20,000 nucleotides of DNA from Vermamoeba vermiformis (GCA_045837725.1 JBEWZL010000069.1:106074-126073), one strand, 5' to 3'; shown: positions 3,524 to 20,000, numbered from the stretch's first letter. Notes: generated from the sequence alone by a model not told the origin. Made by a program: numbers and translations.

Positions 3524-4474
<951 letters not shown>

Positions 4475-9671: not shown

Positions 9672-12329
9672 ATGAACACGCCACAGTCTGCCTTAGAGTT
9701 CAATCCCTTCTTGAACTTGTCGAGGAGGTACCGTAGAGGACGGATTCGCAAAGTCTTTTCAGGCTTAAAGGTATTAATATGATTAACGCTACCTCTTAAT
9801 AGTATTATATAATTATTTCTTATTATCTTCGAAGTTAGAAAATTTAATTGGGCAGGTCTTTGTCAAACTCACTAAAATTCAATTTAAATTAAAATTTGTC
9901 CAGTAATTTTTTTAATTTGCAAATTGAGAGATAATAATCGAGTCCCTCTGAATTTTATCATTGCTCGCAGAAGATATTATTTTTGCAAATTAAATTTCTC
10001 TACCCGCATCCTTTTCAGAGGAGTTAATTTGCTCACAAGGCGAAATGTACACTATTTTATAACTTTCCTTTTATTGCACAATATTTATTTCAGTTGATTC
10101 TAATTTTTATTTGATTTGGATCAGACCGCCATCGCCTCACTTACAATCGTTCCTGTTCGTGGTATCATCACGCTACTGATTGGTGGCTGGATATTTGCGA
10201 CATGCAAGCTGGCTACATTAGGATTACCTCGAAATCACGATCCAAATAAGCAACCTCTGGCTAAGTAAGTGACCTTAAACCAGGATCCAACAATTCATGA
10301 AAATTCAATTTACTTTTTATCCTTTCGGATTTAGTTAATTAAGATATTATGCATAGATGGCGCTTTAGAATCATGAAGATGTCTCGCTTCTTAATGAGGA
10401 CGTTGCTGTTCACCTGGGGATTTTACTGGATCCGATCTAAAGGCAAACCTGTTGGTGGACCACGAGCACCAATTGTTATTGCAAACCATAATAGTATATT
10501 GGATGCTCTATTATTATACTCCACATATGCACCTTGCTTGTAAGTTTCATGCTTAGCTTAACGACTTTTCAGAGATGCACCCCGGATCGAATCTGCACAT
10601 TTTTCTTGTTTGCCTTCGTTATGGCAATACAATACTAATCCTTTTTAGTGTTGCCAAAAAAGAGCTCGAGAAGTTACCGCTCGTCGGAGGAATCTTACGT
10701 GCGACTCAAGCCGTGTTAGTGGACCGACATTCAAAGACGTCACGCGAGGCACGTGCATCACGATCGGAATTCAATTCTTTAATGTGCTAAACAACCTGTC
10801 TATTATAGGAGACTATGGAGGCTATTGCTCGTCGAGGCCACTTTGCAGCCGCGGGAGAAGGTCCTCAAGTGGCCCTCTTTCCTGAAGGCACGACCACGAA
10901 CGGCACGTACTTGCTCAACTTCAAGGTCGGTGCTTTCAAGCCTGGTTTGCCCGTGCAGCCCGTGCACTTGAACTACTATGACCCGTTGTTCAGCTGGACT
11001 GTCGGTAAGTCATCCATTCTCATAGGTACCAATAATACGGTGTCATTAACATGTCACGTAGATAACACGCTGTGGCGCTCGTTGTTCAAGATTTGGGCCA
11101 ACTTTAAGAACTCTGTTGAAGTAGTCTACATGGAGCCTTACGTACGTCGTCTTAAGCTTTTACAAAAATAGAAACGTCTAACTATTATTTACCACCCGAT
11201 AGGTGCCGAATGAGGAAGAGAAAAAAGACGCACAACTGTACGTGAATGATTTATAATTGTCGTCGAAAGTGAATCTAATAGTCCTGTTTGTAGGTACGCA
11301 GACAACGTGCGAAGGAAGATGGCGGATCAGATCGGCTTGCCAATCACGAACCATTCCGTAGAAGACGCCTTCTTGCTCATGGCTGTACGTTAACAATAAT
11401 AACATATTCATCATGTGAACGCGAGTGTGAGCTAACAGAATTGACTTGCAGGCTCAAAGCTTACACGTGCCAAATCAAGCGATCAACGTGCAATACACCG
11501 AGCTCAAAAAACTTTACAATCTCAGCGTTGACGAGATTAAGAACATCCTCAAGTACGTCCTGATAGCTCTAGATAATGTAATCATATCACGCTAATAGTG
11601 TTTTTATAGGGTCTTTGCTACGATGGACAAAGATCACTCGGGCACGCTCGACGCCACGGAGTTCGCTCAAGCACTCAACTTGCCCTTCACTCAAGAGGTC
11701 TACGATCTCTTCCACTTGTTCGATCAAGACGAGTCCGGCACGATAGGTACATATACATATATAATATATTAATATGATGATTTGTCGACTCACGGATCTT
11801 GTTAGATTTCAAGGAGTTCGTGCTTGGCCTGTCAATTTTGAACAGCAAGAAGGAGCTGGAAAGTGACACTGTCAAGTACTGCTTTACAGTCTTCGATGAG
11901 GTAAGAGCGTTAAATAGCACGTGGAGCTATTTCAGTGAAATGTGAGTACTGACAATTACTTAATTTGGAATAGAACAATGACGGCGTAATTTCTCGCGAA
12001 GAATTCAGAAAAATCATGTGCAAATTGTTCTTGAATATTAGACAAGATGATATTAACACTTTATTCTCTAAAATCGATTCCGACAAAGACGGATTCATTC
12101 GTTACGGTAAGTCAAACCACATCCACCAATTTTTTTTATGGTTTACTAATGCTTGGTTTAAGATGATTGGGCTAAGTTCGCTAAAGAAGAGCCTGGCTAT
12201 ATTTTCATCGCCAGCGATATTTTGCAAAAGTTCAAGCCCGAACAAGCTGGTCCTGTGGCTCAAACTATCAGCGGTGCACCTGAAGCTGAAAAAGCAATGT
12301 CGTACACTAAATTGAACAAATCTGTTTAA
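9672..12329 (+). CDS. Lysophospholipid acyltransferase with C-terminal EF-hands (LPCAT1/2 / LPEAT2-like), ~518 aa
   Basis: 13 exons: 9672-9770, 10125-10264, 10357-10539, 10649-10748, 10809-11004, 11062-11141, 11203-11237, 11294-11384, 11452-11552, 11610-11746, 11806-11900, 11974-12106, 12163-12329. Motifs NPFLN, IANHNSILD, VLVDR, LFPEGTTTNG, FKVGAFKPGLPVQPV; EF loops DKDHSGTLDATE, DQDESGTIDFKE, DENNDGVISREE, DSDKDGFIRYDD. Confidence 0.92.
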
Positions 12330-12396
12330 TACAATAATATTAACGTATACTAATATCAATATGTATCATTTGTTTATAAATTAAAACTATCGTTCG

Positions 12397-15300
12397 TTAC
12401 AACTTCATGTTCGGATCCGCTTCTTCGCTTCTCCAAGACAAATAATCTCTGACATAAGTTGTGGTATCGTCACGATCCGATAATACGAGATATCGTGCGT
12501 TTGCCATTTTTGGAATGTGTTCAGTGGGTTGAAGCCACTCGATTTTGCGTGATGGCAAGTGCCACGATGAAACGATTGGTGCATTTTGTGTGTGAATGAA
12601 TAGCCGTTCGTTTGAGCACGGAACATTCTGCAAATCATTCATGAATGAGTTATTCAATAAATATTATAAGTACGAAATGTTATGTTTTACCTCGTAATTT
12701 ATGTAGTTGGGGCGAAGCACATATTTGACAATTTCTGTTTCAGATCCGGTTCGCAAGTCAACAAATCCAACTGCTGTCGTGAGACCACAATATCGACGTC
12801 CTCGCAAGTAATCAGGTGCATACCCCAATATAAGCATTGTATTCTCATCGACTATCTTGGTGTATCTGATAGTCAACGTATCAGAAGAATTGGATGATTT
12901 TTGCGGCACCCAAATATCTTTCATTGTTCGCAAATCTGTGACCGTATAATGATTGCGTGCAGAAGTACTAGAAACAGTGACAATAGTATTGTTGAACGGA
13001 TTAAATGTTGCAATCTCATTTTCTTTGGTATGCAATTCTGCCGTGACTATTTCTTGCTCAATGTTGTAGACGCAGCTCACTAAAAAATAATTAGTATTCT
13101 ATGTGATAGCATTATATTGAAAAAATTGTAAATAATTGTTATGGGAAGTTTTTTTTTTGACACGTGTCAACGGTAATTTTTCACGTGTCATTCGTTGCAA
13201 CAAATATCTAACCACGAAGCTCTCAGAAAACATTTATATTTCTAAGGCAGTTTGACACGTGTCAAAAACTGGTTTGTGAAGTACGTACCGGTCGGGCAAA
13301 AAATCGAGGTAGCGTCTATCGAAGTAATTCCTGCCAAATCTTTTACTCTGCCACGAATGGCAAGATTTTTTAGCACTGGAGATTCAGTTTCGCTCAAAAT
13401 TGTAAATATATGCATCAAGTTCTCGTTCCGTCTTGCGAGCAGCACTTTTGGCACTCGCGCTGCTTCATTATTAGTGTCTTTCAATAATGTGATAAATGAC
13501 CGATGTGTTGTTGTGTTCGAAATGTCTGAAAGTTGTTGACTGTGACAGTTCCAATAAGAGACGTGTGTCGTATTGTAATTGGAGTCAAGGTCTTTCAAAA
13601 TCAACCAATCATCGTTCAGCAAGAATGGCTTGCCTTTCAATTCTGCAACGTTGGAGTACTTGTTTTGTTGCCAGCTCGAGTTCAACCTGTAAAAAAACAA
13701 TGTTAATACTGCTTCAAAAAGTGACACGTGTCGTCGTCGCAAATCTGCGTGCGAAAGAAAATCAAAAGGACTGTCAACTTTCAAAAGAACATCGCATAAC
13801 CCAAACAAGTATTGATTCGCTAAAATTGTCCTGCGATTAGGCCAGGACGCTATTAAGTGTCAAAGTGTCACTTTTTAACGATTTTTTATGACACGTGTCA
13901 TTGTAAAAAAAGTTTGATCTTAAGTGTCAAAATCGGTCGTAAAGATAAGCAATGAAGTTATGACACGTGTCATTATCAAATGATTGATCTTTTTGTCACT
14001 TACTTCAATAGTCGCTGAACTCTCGTTCGATAAGGCAGTGTCACATCTTCAACGTGATTGAAGTACTTGACATGATAATGACGCCAAAGTTGCTCGTCTT
14101 GATTGAACAACGTTGTTTTGAATTCTTCGTCCAATGTCTTCGAGCAGCTGTATAACCTCGTCAAGTCATGTGGAGCAAGATGCATTGCAATTTCTTTGTA
14201 TAGATCTTTCGGTAAATCGAACAGACTGTGACTTCCATTTATGGTAATATTTGCAGATTCCGACAATTCTTCTTGCTTTTTTGGTTTATCGATACAACGA
14301 AACAGCTCCCTAAAATCGTCGCGGTCGATCATTTTCTGCAAATGTTGACGAATGGCTTGTGCGTTGTGAGGCTGACAGTGCTGCAAAAGATAAAAGAATA
14401 GCATTGTATATGTCATATTCTGCACCGAAAAACTCCAATGTTCAATGAATTTTTGCCACGCTGTGTTGGTGGTCTCGTCTTGTTCGACGATCATTTTAAG
14501 AGCGGCAAGAAATTCTACGGGATAAGTGTTCGACGGTCCTAAGTACTTTGAAAGATACGTAATCGCAGGAATTTCTCCCGCCTGGTTCCTAGAAAAAACC
14601 CCGGCATTAAATTTAAAAAAAATCAGAAAAAGTTTAGTACTAATACTGTAAACAAAAGATCGCTTTCCGGGCGATAGTATAAAAATTAACGTGTCTTTTT
14701 AAGCGAAATTTCATCGTTTAAATTTGTACGGGTTGAACTTACGATTGCGAGGCAGCAGCAATGAGTTTTTGAACGTCCGTTGCATGTTTCTTCATCGCTT
14801 TCCAAATACGCTCAAAATCGACCACTCGAACACGTGCATGTCTTGTAGCGTAGTGTAGTATATTATTGCCGCTAGAATCTTGTTCTAAAAAAAAAGTCGT
14901 TAGATCAGATCGGATCCACCAAATTTTTTTTTGTGGTGGTTATTCTTACCTAAGAACCAATCAGGATATCTTTGCAAGTATTCTTCGAATTCCGTAGATT
15001 CCTTTAAATGGTGAAATACTTGCGAGCCCAGAACTATTTGTTTCTTCGTGTAATTGTTGTCTTTGAGCCAGTTCAGCATTCGCATCTTGTCTTTGAATTT
15101 CATATTCGATTGCATAATAGCTAGGCCTAATTCTTTTTCTGGAAAAAAACGAGTTAAACACAATCCATTGTCGTAAGATAGTAGACTAAAAAAAGGTACT
15201 AAGAATTTCAATAATTGCGTTAATAAATAGAAAATGTCAGAGACCTCGGTTATTTGACACGTGTCAAAGATCTTAATTTTTTCACGTCACATAAAAAATA

Positions 15301-16078
15301 TTAGTGCAACGTCGGGAAATAATTTAACGTCAAAAAGTTGAAGGTGTCAAATATCGCTTGTTCTAACAAGGATAAGCGATTATATAATAAGGTTTTCTTA
15401 AATTAATAAAATTGATAAATTTACCGTCCGTGCAAACAGCGCCAAGGGTGAAAGCAGCCTTTAGGTACTTCGGTTTGTGCGCCAGGGTTAGCAAGGGAAA
15501 ATCGTCTCTATCGATCAAAGGTGTCGCGTATTTAAGTCGCTTTATAATATTTCCTGAAGATAAACTTGGTGCGGAGGCAAGATCTGGCAAAAATTTTAGT
15601 TTGGAAGATCCGCAGCGGATTTGCCCATACCGAATAGTTTCAACCATGTAAACTCTTCATAAGGTAAGTCGGTATTAATGCTTGATTTAATAAGCAATTT
15701 AACGGCCATTTCATGCAGACCAAGCCGCACAGCCTGCAACGAATCCGTAAGTCAAAAATTAAAGAACTTACTTTACGACTTACTACGCTAATTAAATCTT
15801 CTTCGTCTTCATTTTTTCTTATTATAGCACGAATTAATAAGCGTTCTTGAGCAGACAACAAAGCAGTGAAGGTTTCGACATCTGACGTTGTAATTGCGTC
15901 TTTTAAAGCCTAATTTTTATTCATTAATTTCTAAACATATATATTTATCGTACAATAGTTATTGTATAACTTAAGCGTTTTGTATCGGTGTTATGCAATT
16001 AATTTATTTTCAGATTATCGAATTTCGGAACGGATTCGAGTCTTTAAGAACGCTACGTACCACTCTATTGCCTTCCAT
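12397..16078 (-). CDS. Ankyrin-like repeat / F-box / beta-rich C-terminal domain protein, copy A, ~779 aa
   Basis: 10 exons: 16078-16061, 15909-15784, 15733-15631, 15583-15425, 15138-14950, 14884-14743, 14588-14004, 13686-13289, 13079-12691, 12627-12397. All introns are GT-AG and the frame stays open (2340 nt). Ankyrin-like segments AVRLGLHEMAVKLL, QDSSGNNILHYAT, NQAGEIP; F-box SLFDLPKDLYKEIAMHLAPHDLTRLYSCSKTL...LWRHY; FBXW-type linker YRTRVQRLLKLNSSWQQNKY. Copy B has identical intron positions and phases. Confidence 0.8.
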
Positions 16079-19077
16079 TACTTGCTTAATCTGATTTATA
16101 CGTGCAATCAAAAATAAGTGTCATTCAAAAACTGTTCTACTTGTGCCTTACTCACAGTGGGACGGGACACGAAGTGGTGCGTTCTTTGACAATTCTCAAA
16201 AGTGATTCGTAAAGACCAAATCTACGAATCGTCATTTATTTGTTTATAAATTAAAACTATCGTTCGTTACAACTTCAAGTTCAGATCCGCTTCTTCGCTT
16301 CCCCAAGACAAATAATCTCTGACATAAGTTGTGGTATCGTCACGATCTGATAATACGAGATATCGTGCATTTGCCATTTTTGGAATGTGTTCAGTGGGTT
16401 GAAGCCACTCGATTTTGCGTGACGGCAAGTGCCACGATGAAACGATTGGTGCGTTTTGTGTGTGAATGAATAGCCGTTCGTTTGAGCACGGAACATTCTG
16501 CAAATCATTCATGAATGAGTTATTCAATAATATATAATATGTTTTAAGTCTTACCGCGTAGGTGTTAGTGAACACGTGTTTGACTCTGTTTGTTTCGGAT
16601 CCAGTTCGCAAGTCAACAAAACTACAAGCAGATGCATAAGTATATCGACGTGCCAACATATGATTGCGACACTGTCCCATAATAAACAGCGTATGCTCAT
16701 CGACTATCTTAGTGAAAGTGATCGTCATTGGGTGTAATGTCTTTCGTGGCACTTTAACGGTGTTGTTTGTGCGAATATCTGTAATCGCATAGTAATCGTT
16801 GCCATATGAAGAAACGGTGACAAAAGTTTTGTTGAACGGATTGTATATAGTTCTACTGTCGAAGTCGAATTTGGGCAGTTGTGCGGTCACTGTTTCGTAT
16901 TCTATGTTGAATACACATCCAGCTTAAAATAGCGTTAGAGTAAGACATGATATTGTCCCAGTAAAATAGTGAAAATTTGAAAGAATTAGTGAAGGAGGAT
17001 TGTTGACACGTGTCAAAGTGTCAATTTTTTCACACAGCTACGTACCGTACGGAAAAAATATCTGATTTTCGGTGATCGAAACAATGTCCTCAAAGACTCT
17101 TAAAGATCTGTAATTATCATCAGGAACATTTTTCAACGGAGCCGATTCTTTCTCGCTTAGAATCTTCAAGAAGAAATTTTGAAGACTTTTGTATTCGCTA
17201 ACGAGCACTTTCGGAGCACTAGCTGATTCAGTCGTGTCTTTCAATATTGTGCAAAATTTGTGGACTGAAGATGTAACTGAAATATTTGCAAAGCTTTGAG
17301 TATGACAGTTCCAATAAGCGACTGGTGTCGTATTGTATGACGTATAATACTCATTCGCAAGGTGGTTGCTCATAATAATCCAATTGTCGTTGATCAGTTG
17401 CGGCTTGCCTTTCATTTCTGCAACGGCGGAATATTTATTCTTCCGCCAGCTGGAGTTTAGCCTGAAAAATAAAACGTTAATAATAGGCAAAAACAAGAAT
17501 TCAGAAGTTGACAGGTGTGCTGTCAATTTTAAGTGTCAAACTCAACAACGAATTTATGACACGTGTCATTGTAAAAAAATCGATCTTAAGTGTCAAAATG
17601 TCCTGCTCAACAATGAAGTTATGACACGTGTCATTATCAAAAAATTGATCGTTTTGTCGCTTACTTCAATAGTCGCTGCACTCTTGTTCGATAAGGCAGT
17701 GTCACATCTTCAACGTGTTTGAAGTACTTGACGTGATAATGACGCCAAAATTGCTCGTCTTGATTGAATAAGATTGTTTTAAATTCTTCGTGCAATGTCT
17801 TTGAGCAGCTGTATAACCTCGTCAAGTCATGCGGAGTGAGTTGAATAATAATTTCTTCGAATAATTCTTTCGGTAAATCGAACAGGATTGTATGATGACT
17901 ATCACTTCCATTTATGGTTATATTCGCTGATTCCGACAATTCTTCTTCCTTCTTTGGTTTGTCAATGACGTGAAACAATTGATGCAAGTCATCGCATTCA
18001 AATAATCTCTGCAAAACTCGTCTGAGGTGCTGAGTATTGTGCGGCTGACCGTGCTGCAAAAGATAACAATACAACATGCCATACTTCAAATTCTGCGTGT
18101 CATAACTCATGTGATGTTCAGTATACGTCATCCACGCTTGATTGATTTCGTCTTGTTCGACGATAATTTTGAGCGCGTTAAGGAATTCTACGGGAGTGGA
18201 CGAATTACCCAAGTACTTTGAAAGATAGGCAATGGCTGGTACTACTCCCGATGAGTTCCTATAAACAAGTCATTAATTATCGAACAATGAAACAACGACG
18301 AAAGTAGAGTGATTCGTGTAGGCTTTAAAGCGCCACCGGACTTGATTTTGGCGATATCGCCAAAAAAAGGAGATAAACAGATAATTGTAAAATTCGATCG
18401 GACTTAACCGACAATTTTGTTATAGTAATCACGTGCCTGGTTTCGATTGAAATTTACGGCTCATTATTGAGGTAAAACGTAATAATTTTTCACGGTAAAC
18501 TTTACCTTTGCAACGCAGCAGTGATAAGTTTTTGTTTGTCAGGGCAAATTTTCTTCAATATGGACCAAGTTCGATTAAATGAAGAGACGCGTACCTTGTC
18601 ATGTCTCGTAATTTCGTGCAGGATATTGTTGTGCGTTAACGGATCTTTTTCTACGAATAAAATTTTTAGATCTGATCTCGGATCTCGAGAGCTCAACGGT
18701 AAATTTTATTCGTACCTAAGATCCAATCACCATCAGGATAACTTTTCAAGTATTCTTCGAATTCTGGAGATTGTATAATGAAGCGCCGTACTTCAGAAGT
18801 AGGTACGATTTGGTGCGTCACGTAATTGTTGTCTTTGAGCCATTGCAAAAGTTTGATTTTGTCTTTGAATTGCAAGCAAGATGTCATAATGGCCGAGCCT
18901 AAGGCACTCGCTATATAAAAAAAAAAATACGGTTAGTTAAACTGAGGATAGTTTCAGTTTTTGACACGTGTCATTTGAAAAAACCAACAAAGCGATCTAT
19001 ATTAACTAATTTAGGCGTCGAAGCAGCGATTTTTTTTCCGTGAAATGATTTTCAAACACGCCGTTTGGCACGTGTCA
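13158..19077. repeat. Dispersed 12-bp palindrome TGACACGTGTCA in introns of the F-box paralogs
   Basis: Perfect copies start at 13158, 13253, 13889, 13961, 15255, 17004, 17557, 17622, 18962. Near-perfect copies at ~13179, 13722, 19066. Several extend to 14-16 bp (TTTGACACGTGTCAAA at 13251 and 15253). Confidence 0.95.
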
Positions 19078-19833
19078 TAATGCTGATCGTAATTTAAACT
19101 TTTGGCGGTTTCGGTGACAAGCAGTATTAAGGTATTTCATCAATTGCTTTAATAACCTCGGTAATTTAGTCCTATTAATAAAATTGATAAATTTACCGTC
19201 CGTGCAAACAGCGCCAAGGGCGAAAGCAGCTTTGAGGTACTTCGGTTTGTGTGCCAGGGTTGTCAACGGGAAATTGTCTTTAGAGATCAGCGGCGCAGCA
19301 TATTTTAATCGTTCAATAATTTGGGTTGAGGAAGCATGTGGTGCGGAGACAAGATCTGGCAGGAATTTTAGTTTGGAAGATCCGCAGCGGATTTGCCCGT
19401 ACCGAACAGTTTTAGCCATGTTATCTTCTCAAATGGTATTTTTGCATCCTCATAAGTCATAACAAGCAATTTAATGGCCAGCTCTTGTCGACCAAGATGA
19501 ACGGCCTGAATTTTCAAATCCGCTTTTAGCACGAGTAGGGAAAGCTTGTAAGACTTACGTAGCTTATCAAGTCTTCATTTTGATTTTTTAATAGGTCTCG
19601 CAATGAGAGGCTATCCATTGAAGAAATTAGACGGGCAAAGACTTCGACATCTGCCTTCGAAATTGCGTCCTTCAATGCCTGTAAAATAATTGGTAAAAAA
19701 TGTTGTTCATTAATTATAATTATTTAGCACTAAAAGAGCTCGCTCATCTTCCGAGCTAGATTTTAATTTTACATTCCGATGCATTTCCCAACGGATCGTG
19801 CCCACCTACCCCGAATTTATCGTCCTTCTCCAT
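16267..19833 (-). CDS. Ankyrin-like repeat / F-box / beta-rich C-terminal domain protein, copy B (tandem paralog), ~784 aa
   Basis: 10 exons: 19833-19810, 19678-19559, 19505-19403, 19355-19197, 18910-18716, 18650-18506, 18258-17665, 17461-17046, 16922-16555, 16497-16267 (2355 nt, frame open). F-box LFDLPKELFEEIIIQLTPHDLTRLYSCSKTL; exon-by-exon homology to copy A. Confidence 0.8.
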
Positions 19834-20000
19834 TAGAATTTAATCTGAGTGCGTGCGTTTGTTGTGGGCTTCATTGTAAGAAAAAGCGAGAACTGGCAAA
19901 ATTCGGAAGCAGCACGGGGATGGTACCAGAAGAGCAGTAACATTAATTTCATGTTGGAAATGTGGAAGAAATTTATCCAAATCAGATCTACAAGTCAGCG

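Follow-up and report, generated by a model that had tools for sequence, protein, structure and literature searches.

The 20,000-nucleotide stretch of Vermamoeba vermiformis DNA analyzed here (GCA_045837725.1 JBEWZL010000069.1:106074-126073, referred to below as the window) contains two tandem paralogous genes, designated copy A and copy B, whose introns hold repeated copies of a 12-nucleotide (nt) palindrome, TGACACGTGTCA. Nine exact and three near-exact copies are found between positions 13158 and 19077, all of them within introns 4, 7 and 8 of the two genes. The palindrome family is real, non-random and intronic, and is better conserved than its flanks. From the sequence and its arrangement we tentatively read the palindromes as a homotypic cluster of binding sites, spread by local duplication, for a dimeric sequence-specific DNA-binding protein. 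The observation itself is solid, and its likeliest meanings (a binding-site cluster or a micro-repeat) are ordinary ones; a role in recombination is unlikely, and would be a real surprise if true.

The exact copies extend from 13158 to 18973, with none before 13158 in a scan of the window, and not one of 200 dinucleotide shuffles contained any copy (mean expectation 0.00). Two single-mismatch copies (at 13722 and 19066) bring the total to 11, against 0.04 expected, and the host genes contain one further copy with two mismatches (at 13179). Matches of this last grade in the first 13 kilobases number three (1620, 5476 and 11461), near the chance level of 0.75. The sequence is also the sole multiply repeated palindrome of its length in the window, accounting for nine of the 18 palindromic 12-mers; the runner-up is present twice.

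The host genes were recognized by blastn as tandem minus-strand paralogs occupying 12368-16100 and 16238-19900 (Table 1). For copy A, nine GT..AG joints on the minus strand are present in spliced contigs of a related RNA run (X5) and missing from a DNA run (X1), and therefore represent nine introns; introns 2 and 8 of copy B are supported by two listed X5 joints. All 12 palindromes fall in introns 4, 7 and 8 of the two genes and none in an exon, and since all nine introns of copy A are spliced out, we conclude that every copy is intronic. Introns 4, 7 and 8 of A are 286, 317 and 209 nt long, and the corresponding lengths in B are 286, 203 and 123 nt. The other introns of A span 47-154 nt, which places the motif introns among the longer ones, and intron 6 of B (247 nt) is without a copy. 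Four of the six motif introns, namely 7 and 8 in each gene, hold a palindrome 24-31 nt past the 5' splice site (copies at 13253, 13961, 17004 and 17622). The rest of the window contains genes for a protein kinase and a four-repeat polyubiquitin, two acyltransferase-like genes and an EF-hand gene, and no exact motif was found in these other 12.3 kilobases, including the non-coding DNA of those genes.

The repeated unit exceeds 12 nt. Two 14-nt palindromes enclose the core, TTGACACGTGTCAA (four copies, in introns 4 and 8) and ATGACACGTGTCAT (four copies, in intron 7), and seven copies have A or T at two further positions on each side, often within T- or A-runs that continue outward. CACGTG, with CG as its central dinucleotide, is present in 12 of 12 copies, and the 10-mer GACACGTGTC in ten. 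Inverted TGACA/TGTCA halves separated by a 2-bp spacer are found in all nine exact copies, while the copies at 13179, 13722 and 19066 each keep one half intact. Separate half-units, AAGTGTCA, are found seven times where 0.90 would be expected, all on the plus strand (7 vs 0), and four of the seven correspond to the 12-mer TTAAGTGTCAAA. One directly adjoins the palindrome at 17004-17015, and another, at 16116, is the sole member of the motif family outside an intron. The half-units retain GTGTCA and have lost the CACGTG core, and it would therefore be the TGACA/TGTCA halves, rather than the E-box core, that are read. They fit a putative factor that reads TGTCA-type halves and is able to bind a single one.

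Comparison of the two paralogs indicates how the copies have fared relative to their surroundings. In intron 7, only the last ~150 nt beside the 5' splice site can be aligned between A and B, and this portion holds two tandem units in each gene, each unit in A consisting of TTAAGTGTCAAA, then ~20 nt, then the ATGACACGTGTCAT palindrome. Because the arrangement is common to both genes, it predates their last homogenization. Within the alignable part the cores are identical at 24 of 24 positions, the half-units at 21 of 24 and the remaining columns at 81 of 112; by our own arithmetic, the chance of 24 straight matches at 72% identity is ~4e-4. Intron 8 displays ~42-55% identity, yet an exact core is present in both genes. 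In B the distances to the 5' splice site and to the opposite end are 30 and 81 nt; in A, where two palindromes lie 95 nt apart, they are 24 and 78 nt. The intron of A amounts to the intron of B plus ~86 nt between the two palindrome copies; either A carries an extra inter-palindrome segment or B lost one. Intron 4 is 286 nt long in both genes (15139-15424 and 18911-19196), with 43-48% identity in 60-column windows, and its cores occupy non-homologous offsets (116 in A versus 51 and 155 in B), the pattern of presumptive binding-site turnover. Immediately beyond its 5' splice site, 23 nt of this intron (15402-15424 and 19174-19196) are identical between the copies.

The flanks of copies at non-homologous positions were examined in an anchored comparison, in which the best pair agreed at 16 of 30 positions, the 99th percentile of a null composed of random intron pairs. 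The flanks being no more alike than random, what the copies have in common is the site and no longer element. A longer shared element around the copies was also considered as a candidate, and was ruled out by the same comparison.

A preliminary description of this DNA had reported the nine perfect and three near-perfect palindromes (where none would be expected), the lack of a perfect copy in the first 13 kilobases, the confinement of the motif to the same three introns of both paralogs, its persistence in introns 4 and 8 although these are largely unalignable, and the CACGTG core set within inverted TGACA/TGTCA halves. The counts were reproduced, the X5 joints and gene models agree with the placement, the identities given above agree with the divergence, and the sequence logic of the core holds. 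The nearby half-sites that it listed also stand as a group, with one position corrected from 13856 to 13855 and the unit at 16116, which had been missed, added.

Letter-perfect cores amid decayed neighbors, shifts in position and number, nothing in common beyond the site and its A/T flanks, and the presence of single-half versions together correspond to the behavior of a homotypic cluster. If the palindromes are bound by a protein, its dimer would contact the TGACA/TGTCA-type halves, the isolated AAGTGTCA units would act as single-half sites, and the sites together would form a regulatory module, either activating or silencing, of a lineage-specific gene family. We propose that they are located in the longer introns, and once upstream of A, because these closely packed genes leave very little spacer DNA. 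The set of copies may have been reshaped by tandem duplication of the 65-72-nt units, by loss and gain between directly repeated copies, and by inter-paralog gene conversion, and the same units at other loci would then belong to further family members or to other target genes. The putative intronic enhancer suggested previously draws partial support from the likeness to published sites described below and from the better conservation of the intron 7 cores relative to their flanks. Were these binding sites, they would represent a cis-regulatory word for an orphan, rapidly diverging family, and an example of site conservation beside turnover in saturated introns.

Several observations weigh against a binding-site cluster. 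Nine letter-perfect 12-mers are more uniform than most sets of transcription factor sites and resemble the products of recent copying. A symmetric enhancer does not need the single-strand bias of the half-units, although several of these are homologous pairs. Motif units of 20-33 nt are found with unlike flanks in DNA contigs of the same organism, and indel variants adjoin copies, both of which fit a dispersed or unstable repeat. Finally, the conserved block in intron 7 lies within a likely gene-conversion tract, and part of its conservation may therefore reflect recent copying rather than selection.

We compared the palindrome with three published sites. The canonical site of the TGIF1 homeodomain dimer, TGACAGCTGTCA (PMC6158717), contains the same inverted TGACA/TGTCA halves, with a 2-base gap and A/T flanks, and agrees with the window core at ten of 12 positions; the sole two that differ are the central ones (GC rather than CG). 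Single halves, as are expected for homeodomains, are likewise present in the window, whereas its copies differ in being letter-perfect and multiplied within introns. The Iroquois (Irx) motif, ACAnnTGT (PMC4726432), is matched by ACACGTGT, located inside the ten copies that hold GACACGTGTC; the conserved unit of the window is nonetheless 12-14 nt long rather than 8, and the half-units do not fit the motif. The class B E-box optimum of the E(spl)/Hey basic helix-loop-helix (bHLH) proteins, tggCACGTGcca (PMC1950541), is also a 12-nt palindrome with a CACGTG core and outer TG..CA letters, agrees at ten of 12 positions, and has its exact left half (TGG) in the copy at 19066. However, 11 of the 12 window copies possess TGA/TCA-type flanks (A/T beside the core) rather than tgg...cca, and the half-units are without the CACGTG that a site for an obligate bHLH dimer requires. 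With no exact match among the three, we claim a likeness of geometry and not membership in any of these classes.

In the open-access literature (main texts, judged mostly by title) we found no account of TGACACGTGTCA in introns. The titles retrieved with the exact 12-mer all concerned Ebola virus, and those retrieved with GACACGTGTC concerned plant drought and promoter motifs, bacterial repressors and unrelated work. A combination of palindromic motif, introns, gene conversion and paralogs returned only Paramecium, which by its abstract was irrelevant.

The main rival to a binding-site cluster, which we consider possible but on balance unlikely, is a neutral small dispersed repeat: the remnant or sub-terminal repeats of a non-autonomous transposon resembling a miniature inverted-repeat transposable element (MITE), or a self-propagating palindromic unit, that inserted into the longer introns of the family as well as at other loci and does nothing for the genes. 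It would account for the uniformity of the copies, for their confinement to longer introns, and for half-units that are strand-biased as sub-terminal repeats are. The contigs of X1, possibly the source sample of the window, bear on it most directly. Perfect-match contigs span several copies (for example 16994-17242 and 18946-19203). Among the X1 contigs listed, others match the doublet at 13158-13190 alone (three diverging before it and four after it) or 13247-13266 alone (two before and two after), the loose ends agreeing poorly with one another (0.57-0.65). Some continue with AAGTGTCAAA after the doublet, and one X5 contig matches 19035-19073 alone. Motif units shared with different flanks in DNA contigs imply that units of 20-38 nt exist at other loci, which may be further members of the family. 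Three of the motif-bearing bins have an elevated summed depth (1339, 1434 and 1089, with neighboring bins at ~450-900), and the other three do not.

Indel variants adjacent to copies point in the same direction. Single X1 contigs lack a tandem unit in intron 7 of B (joint 17541 to 17608), replace 19052-19135 with 25 letters that hold TGACACGTGTC (joint 19051 to 19136), and lack 83 nt upstream of A, 16120-16202 (joint 16119 to 16203), with the gap starting inside the half-unit at 16116-16123. This last gap ends just past a degenerate 16-mer, TTTGACAATTCTCAAA, at 16185-16200. In another X1 contig an A at 13733 would make the 13722 copy exact. The segment that distinguishes intron 8 of A from that of B lies between copies that form a 17-nt perfect inverted pair (13154-13170 with 13252-13268, 81 nt between them), although any two copies of a palindrome form an inverted pair and the pair alone is therefore not diagnostic of terminal inverted repeats.

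Other results argue against such a repeat. The flanks of non-homologous copies are alike only in their A/T runs, and the 56 nt between 13158-13190 and 13247-13266 are not common to the other X1 contigs listed, so that any visible element is at most ~33 nt long. Target-site duplications were not seen either, though no element ends are definable in the window. No exact copy of the motif is present in the other 12.3 kilobases, and its cores are perfectly kept amid diverged flanks. The other X1 loci could be further paralogs: two RNA runs labelled with the organism of the window (X16 and X18) yielded 8 and 7 reads, all partial and derived from paralogs, with almost none on these genes, and conserved stretches of exons 4 and 10 are common to the expressed paralogs. 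No RNA record was listed for the stretch itself. The earlier suggestion of a small repeat element thus stands in part, in the short units shared among X1 contigs and the raised depth of some bins, and not in any longer consensus, flank similarity or structure of terminal inverted repeats and target-site duplications. A mobile micro-repeat would illustrate how introns grow in duplicated genes.

A metagenome scan with the doublet pattern returned at least 120 loci. Among the 120 listed, 51 (in two families) carry the doublet in the inverted ends of MITE-like elements, six of them with both ends, which favors a dispersed repeat. Their arrangement (a T-run, TGACACGTGTCA, ~13 nt, CACGTGTCA and AAGTGA) comes close to that of window positions 13149-13190 and of the X1 contigs in which AAGTGTCAAA follows. 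These elements are, however, ~650-750 bp long, with ~100-nt inverted ends and a conserved interior, while the window shares only 12-33-nt units; and none of the 120 is related to the window by blastn or tblastn, indicating that the elements come from unrelated organisms. The remaining listed loci comprise high-GC, bacterial-looking contigs and assorted tandem arrays. Among the high-GC contigs (0.70-0.77), a number share the doublet TTGACACGTGTCAAAC, ~12 nt, TTTACACGTGTCAA, which looks like a conserved bacterial operator-type site.

A role at the level of RNA appears improbable. Self-complementary copies could pair in the pre-mRNA and affect splicing, for example by looping out exon 8 (with skipping or back-splicing) or by reducing the effective length of long introns. 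Any two copies are complementary, 13158 is joined to 13253 (17 bp) and 13889 to 13961 in the predicted folds, the half-units are one-stranded, and a copy lies near the 5' splice site in four of the six motif introns. Intron 7 of A folds beyond its shuffles (z -3.2; 1 of 100 as good) and intron 8 of A does so weakly (z -1.8; 11 of 200 as good), but any palindrome lowers the folding energy and these scores are therefore not independent evidence. Against pairing, the two-copy intron 4 of B shows no folding advantage over its shuffles (z 0.0), a single copy is all that intron 4 of A or intron 8 of B holds, the X5 contigs display only normal joints of exons 7, 8 and 9, and the whole window gave no Rfam match at E<=1.

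The two paralogs are mosaics. Identity is 97-98% across exon 10 plus the 3' flank (12368 to ~12640 versus 16238-16510), a tract that looks like a recent gene conversion ending within intron 9; 82-93% over 13937-14196, a segment that takes in the 5' portion of intron 7 and the F-box-like end of exon 7; 97% at 15402-15461; and 85-88% around intron 3. Across exons 8 and 9 nucleotide identity falls to 43-73% (exon 8, 43-73%; exon 9, 47-65%). A different 14-nt palindrome, TCATTCATGAATGA, is present in both copies (12635-12648 and 16505-16518) at the 3' end of intron 9, exactly where identity drops from 97-98% to ~55%.

Such a mosaic, together with one tract edge that fades within the motif-bearing part of intron 7, the three indel variants that adjoin copies, and an intron 8 difference that lies between two palindromes, is what a recombination or gene-conversion signal that lets variable exons swap among family members might leave. 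Only one of eight high-identity tract boundaries (two sequences being compared) falls in a motif-bearing segment, however; the sharpest (98% to 55%, at ~12650 in intron 9) is without a copy, as are those at 15402, ~15500, 15562 and 15661; the copies in intron 4 flank no variable exon; and the lone X1 joint between A and B away from the motif (12568 to 17296) has a shorter side of 23 letters, too few to trust. The preliminary description had also placed introns 7 and 8 on either side of a variable exon 8, but exon 9 is equally variable and intron 9 has no motif, and the palindromes therefore do not lie on both sides of the variable block, which comprises exons 8 and 9 together. Recombination signals, one of the three options first suggested, are weakly supported; they are the weakest of the readings and a very remote one. 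Just as improbable is a more elaborate version in which the palindromes would be conserved intronic anchors where segments encoding the hypervariable C-terminal exons (putatively substrate-binding) are exchanged, gained or lost. The lineage-specific family of F-box-like proteins would then be diversified, in the germline or somatically, by means of a 12-14-nt palindrome that a dedicated, possibly transposase-derived protein recognizes.

The host genes form a nearly orphan, lineage-specific and fast-evolving family, and the F-box/ankyrin label previously given to them was not confirmed by Pfam or Protein Data Bank (PDB) searches. With exons scanned singly, Pfam matches were below threshold: exon 7 of A gave F-box at E=0.13 and 12.7 bits (cut-off 20.5), and exon 6 gave Ank_4 at E=0.025 and Ank_3 at E=0.057. 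P0008, a full-length relative of 647 aa, had no Pfam match at E<=1 and no PDB match, and a seven-sequence family profile found no F-box chain in the PDB. The AlphaFold model of the exon 7 domain (pLDDT 50.7) places three short helices at the F-box-like motif and is too poor for a fold search. Language-model neighbors belong to Ank/F-box clusters, with scores of at most 0.83 that serve as a lead only. A full HMMER search of 1.84 billion proteins identified three representatives of the family, whose clusters include P0008 and members on long JGI contigs. A word-indexed search for longer protein relatives of exon 7 had no match, and no relatives of P0008 were found among viral and prokaryotic genome contigs.

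Table 1. Positions of the host genes, palindrome copies, half-units and related metagenome loci (window coordinates unless a locus is named)
Feature	Position	Strand	Remarks
Copy A gene	12397..16078	-	10 exons, 779 aa; intact open reading frame, single terminal stop; GT-AG model
Copy A exons 1-5	16061-16078, 15784-15909, 15631-15733, 15425-15583, 14950-15138	-	
Copy A exons 6-10	14743-14884, 14004-14588, 13289-13686, 12691-13079, 12397-12627	-	
Copy B gene	16267..19833	-	10 exons, 784 aa; intact open reading frame; best-scoring GT-AG model by homology to A
Copy B introns 9-5	16498-16554, 16923-17045, 17462-17664, 18259-18505, 18651-18715		
Copy B introns 4-1	18911-19196, 19356-19402, 19506-19558, 19679-19809		
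Exact palindrome, intron 8 of A	13158..13169		within 14-mer TTGACACGTGTCAA; first half of doublet with 13179-13190
Degenerate copy TTTCACGTGTCA, intron 8 of A	13179..13190		2 mismatches
Exact palindrome, intron 8 of A	13253..13264		24 nt from 5' splice site
Single-mismatch copy TGACACGTGTCG, intron 7 of A	13722..13733		
Exact palindrome, intron 7 of A	13889..13900		ATGACACGTGTCAT type; positional homologue 17557
Exact palindrome, intron 7 of A	13961..13972		ATGACACGTGTCAT type; 31 nt from 5' splice site; homologue 17622
Exact palindrome, intron 4 of A	15255..15266		TTGACACGTGTCAA type; degenerate second half near 15281
Exact palindrome, intron 8 of B	17004..17015		30 nt from 5' splice site, 81 nt from 3' end
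Exact palindrome, intron 7 of B	17557..17568		
Exact palindrome, intron 7 of B	17622..17633		31 nt from 5' splice site
Exact palindrome, intron 4 of B	18962..18973		
Single-mismatch copy TGGCACGTGTCA, intron 4 of B	19066..19077		
Two tandem ~72-nt units, intron 7 of A	13853..13989	+	half-units 13855, 13863, 13922
Two tandem ~65-nt units, intron 7 of B	17528..17650	+	half-units 17531, 17588
Isolated half-unit AAGTGTCA	16116..16123	+	~40 nt upstream of copy A start codon
All half-units AAGTGTCA	13855, 13863, 13922, 16116, 17016, 17531, 17588	+	
AT-rich metagenome MITE-like loci	L011 2330-3130, L012 6800-7600, L021, L037, L051, L070, L096		
High-GC metagenome contigs with doublet	L003, L031, L039, L055, L062, L071, L088, L090, L107, L108, L115		

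Two minor observations concern the region and its neighbors. A second version of the host region is present in X1, ~5% different at 12631-12952 and elsewhere in 12300-20000; its depth is 433, about twice that of the perfect-match contigs (211-247), and its 16 differences are also found in the spliced X5 contigs. The polyubiquitin gene at 3524-4474 consists of four 228-nt repeats that display 83-85% DNA identity with one another.

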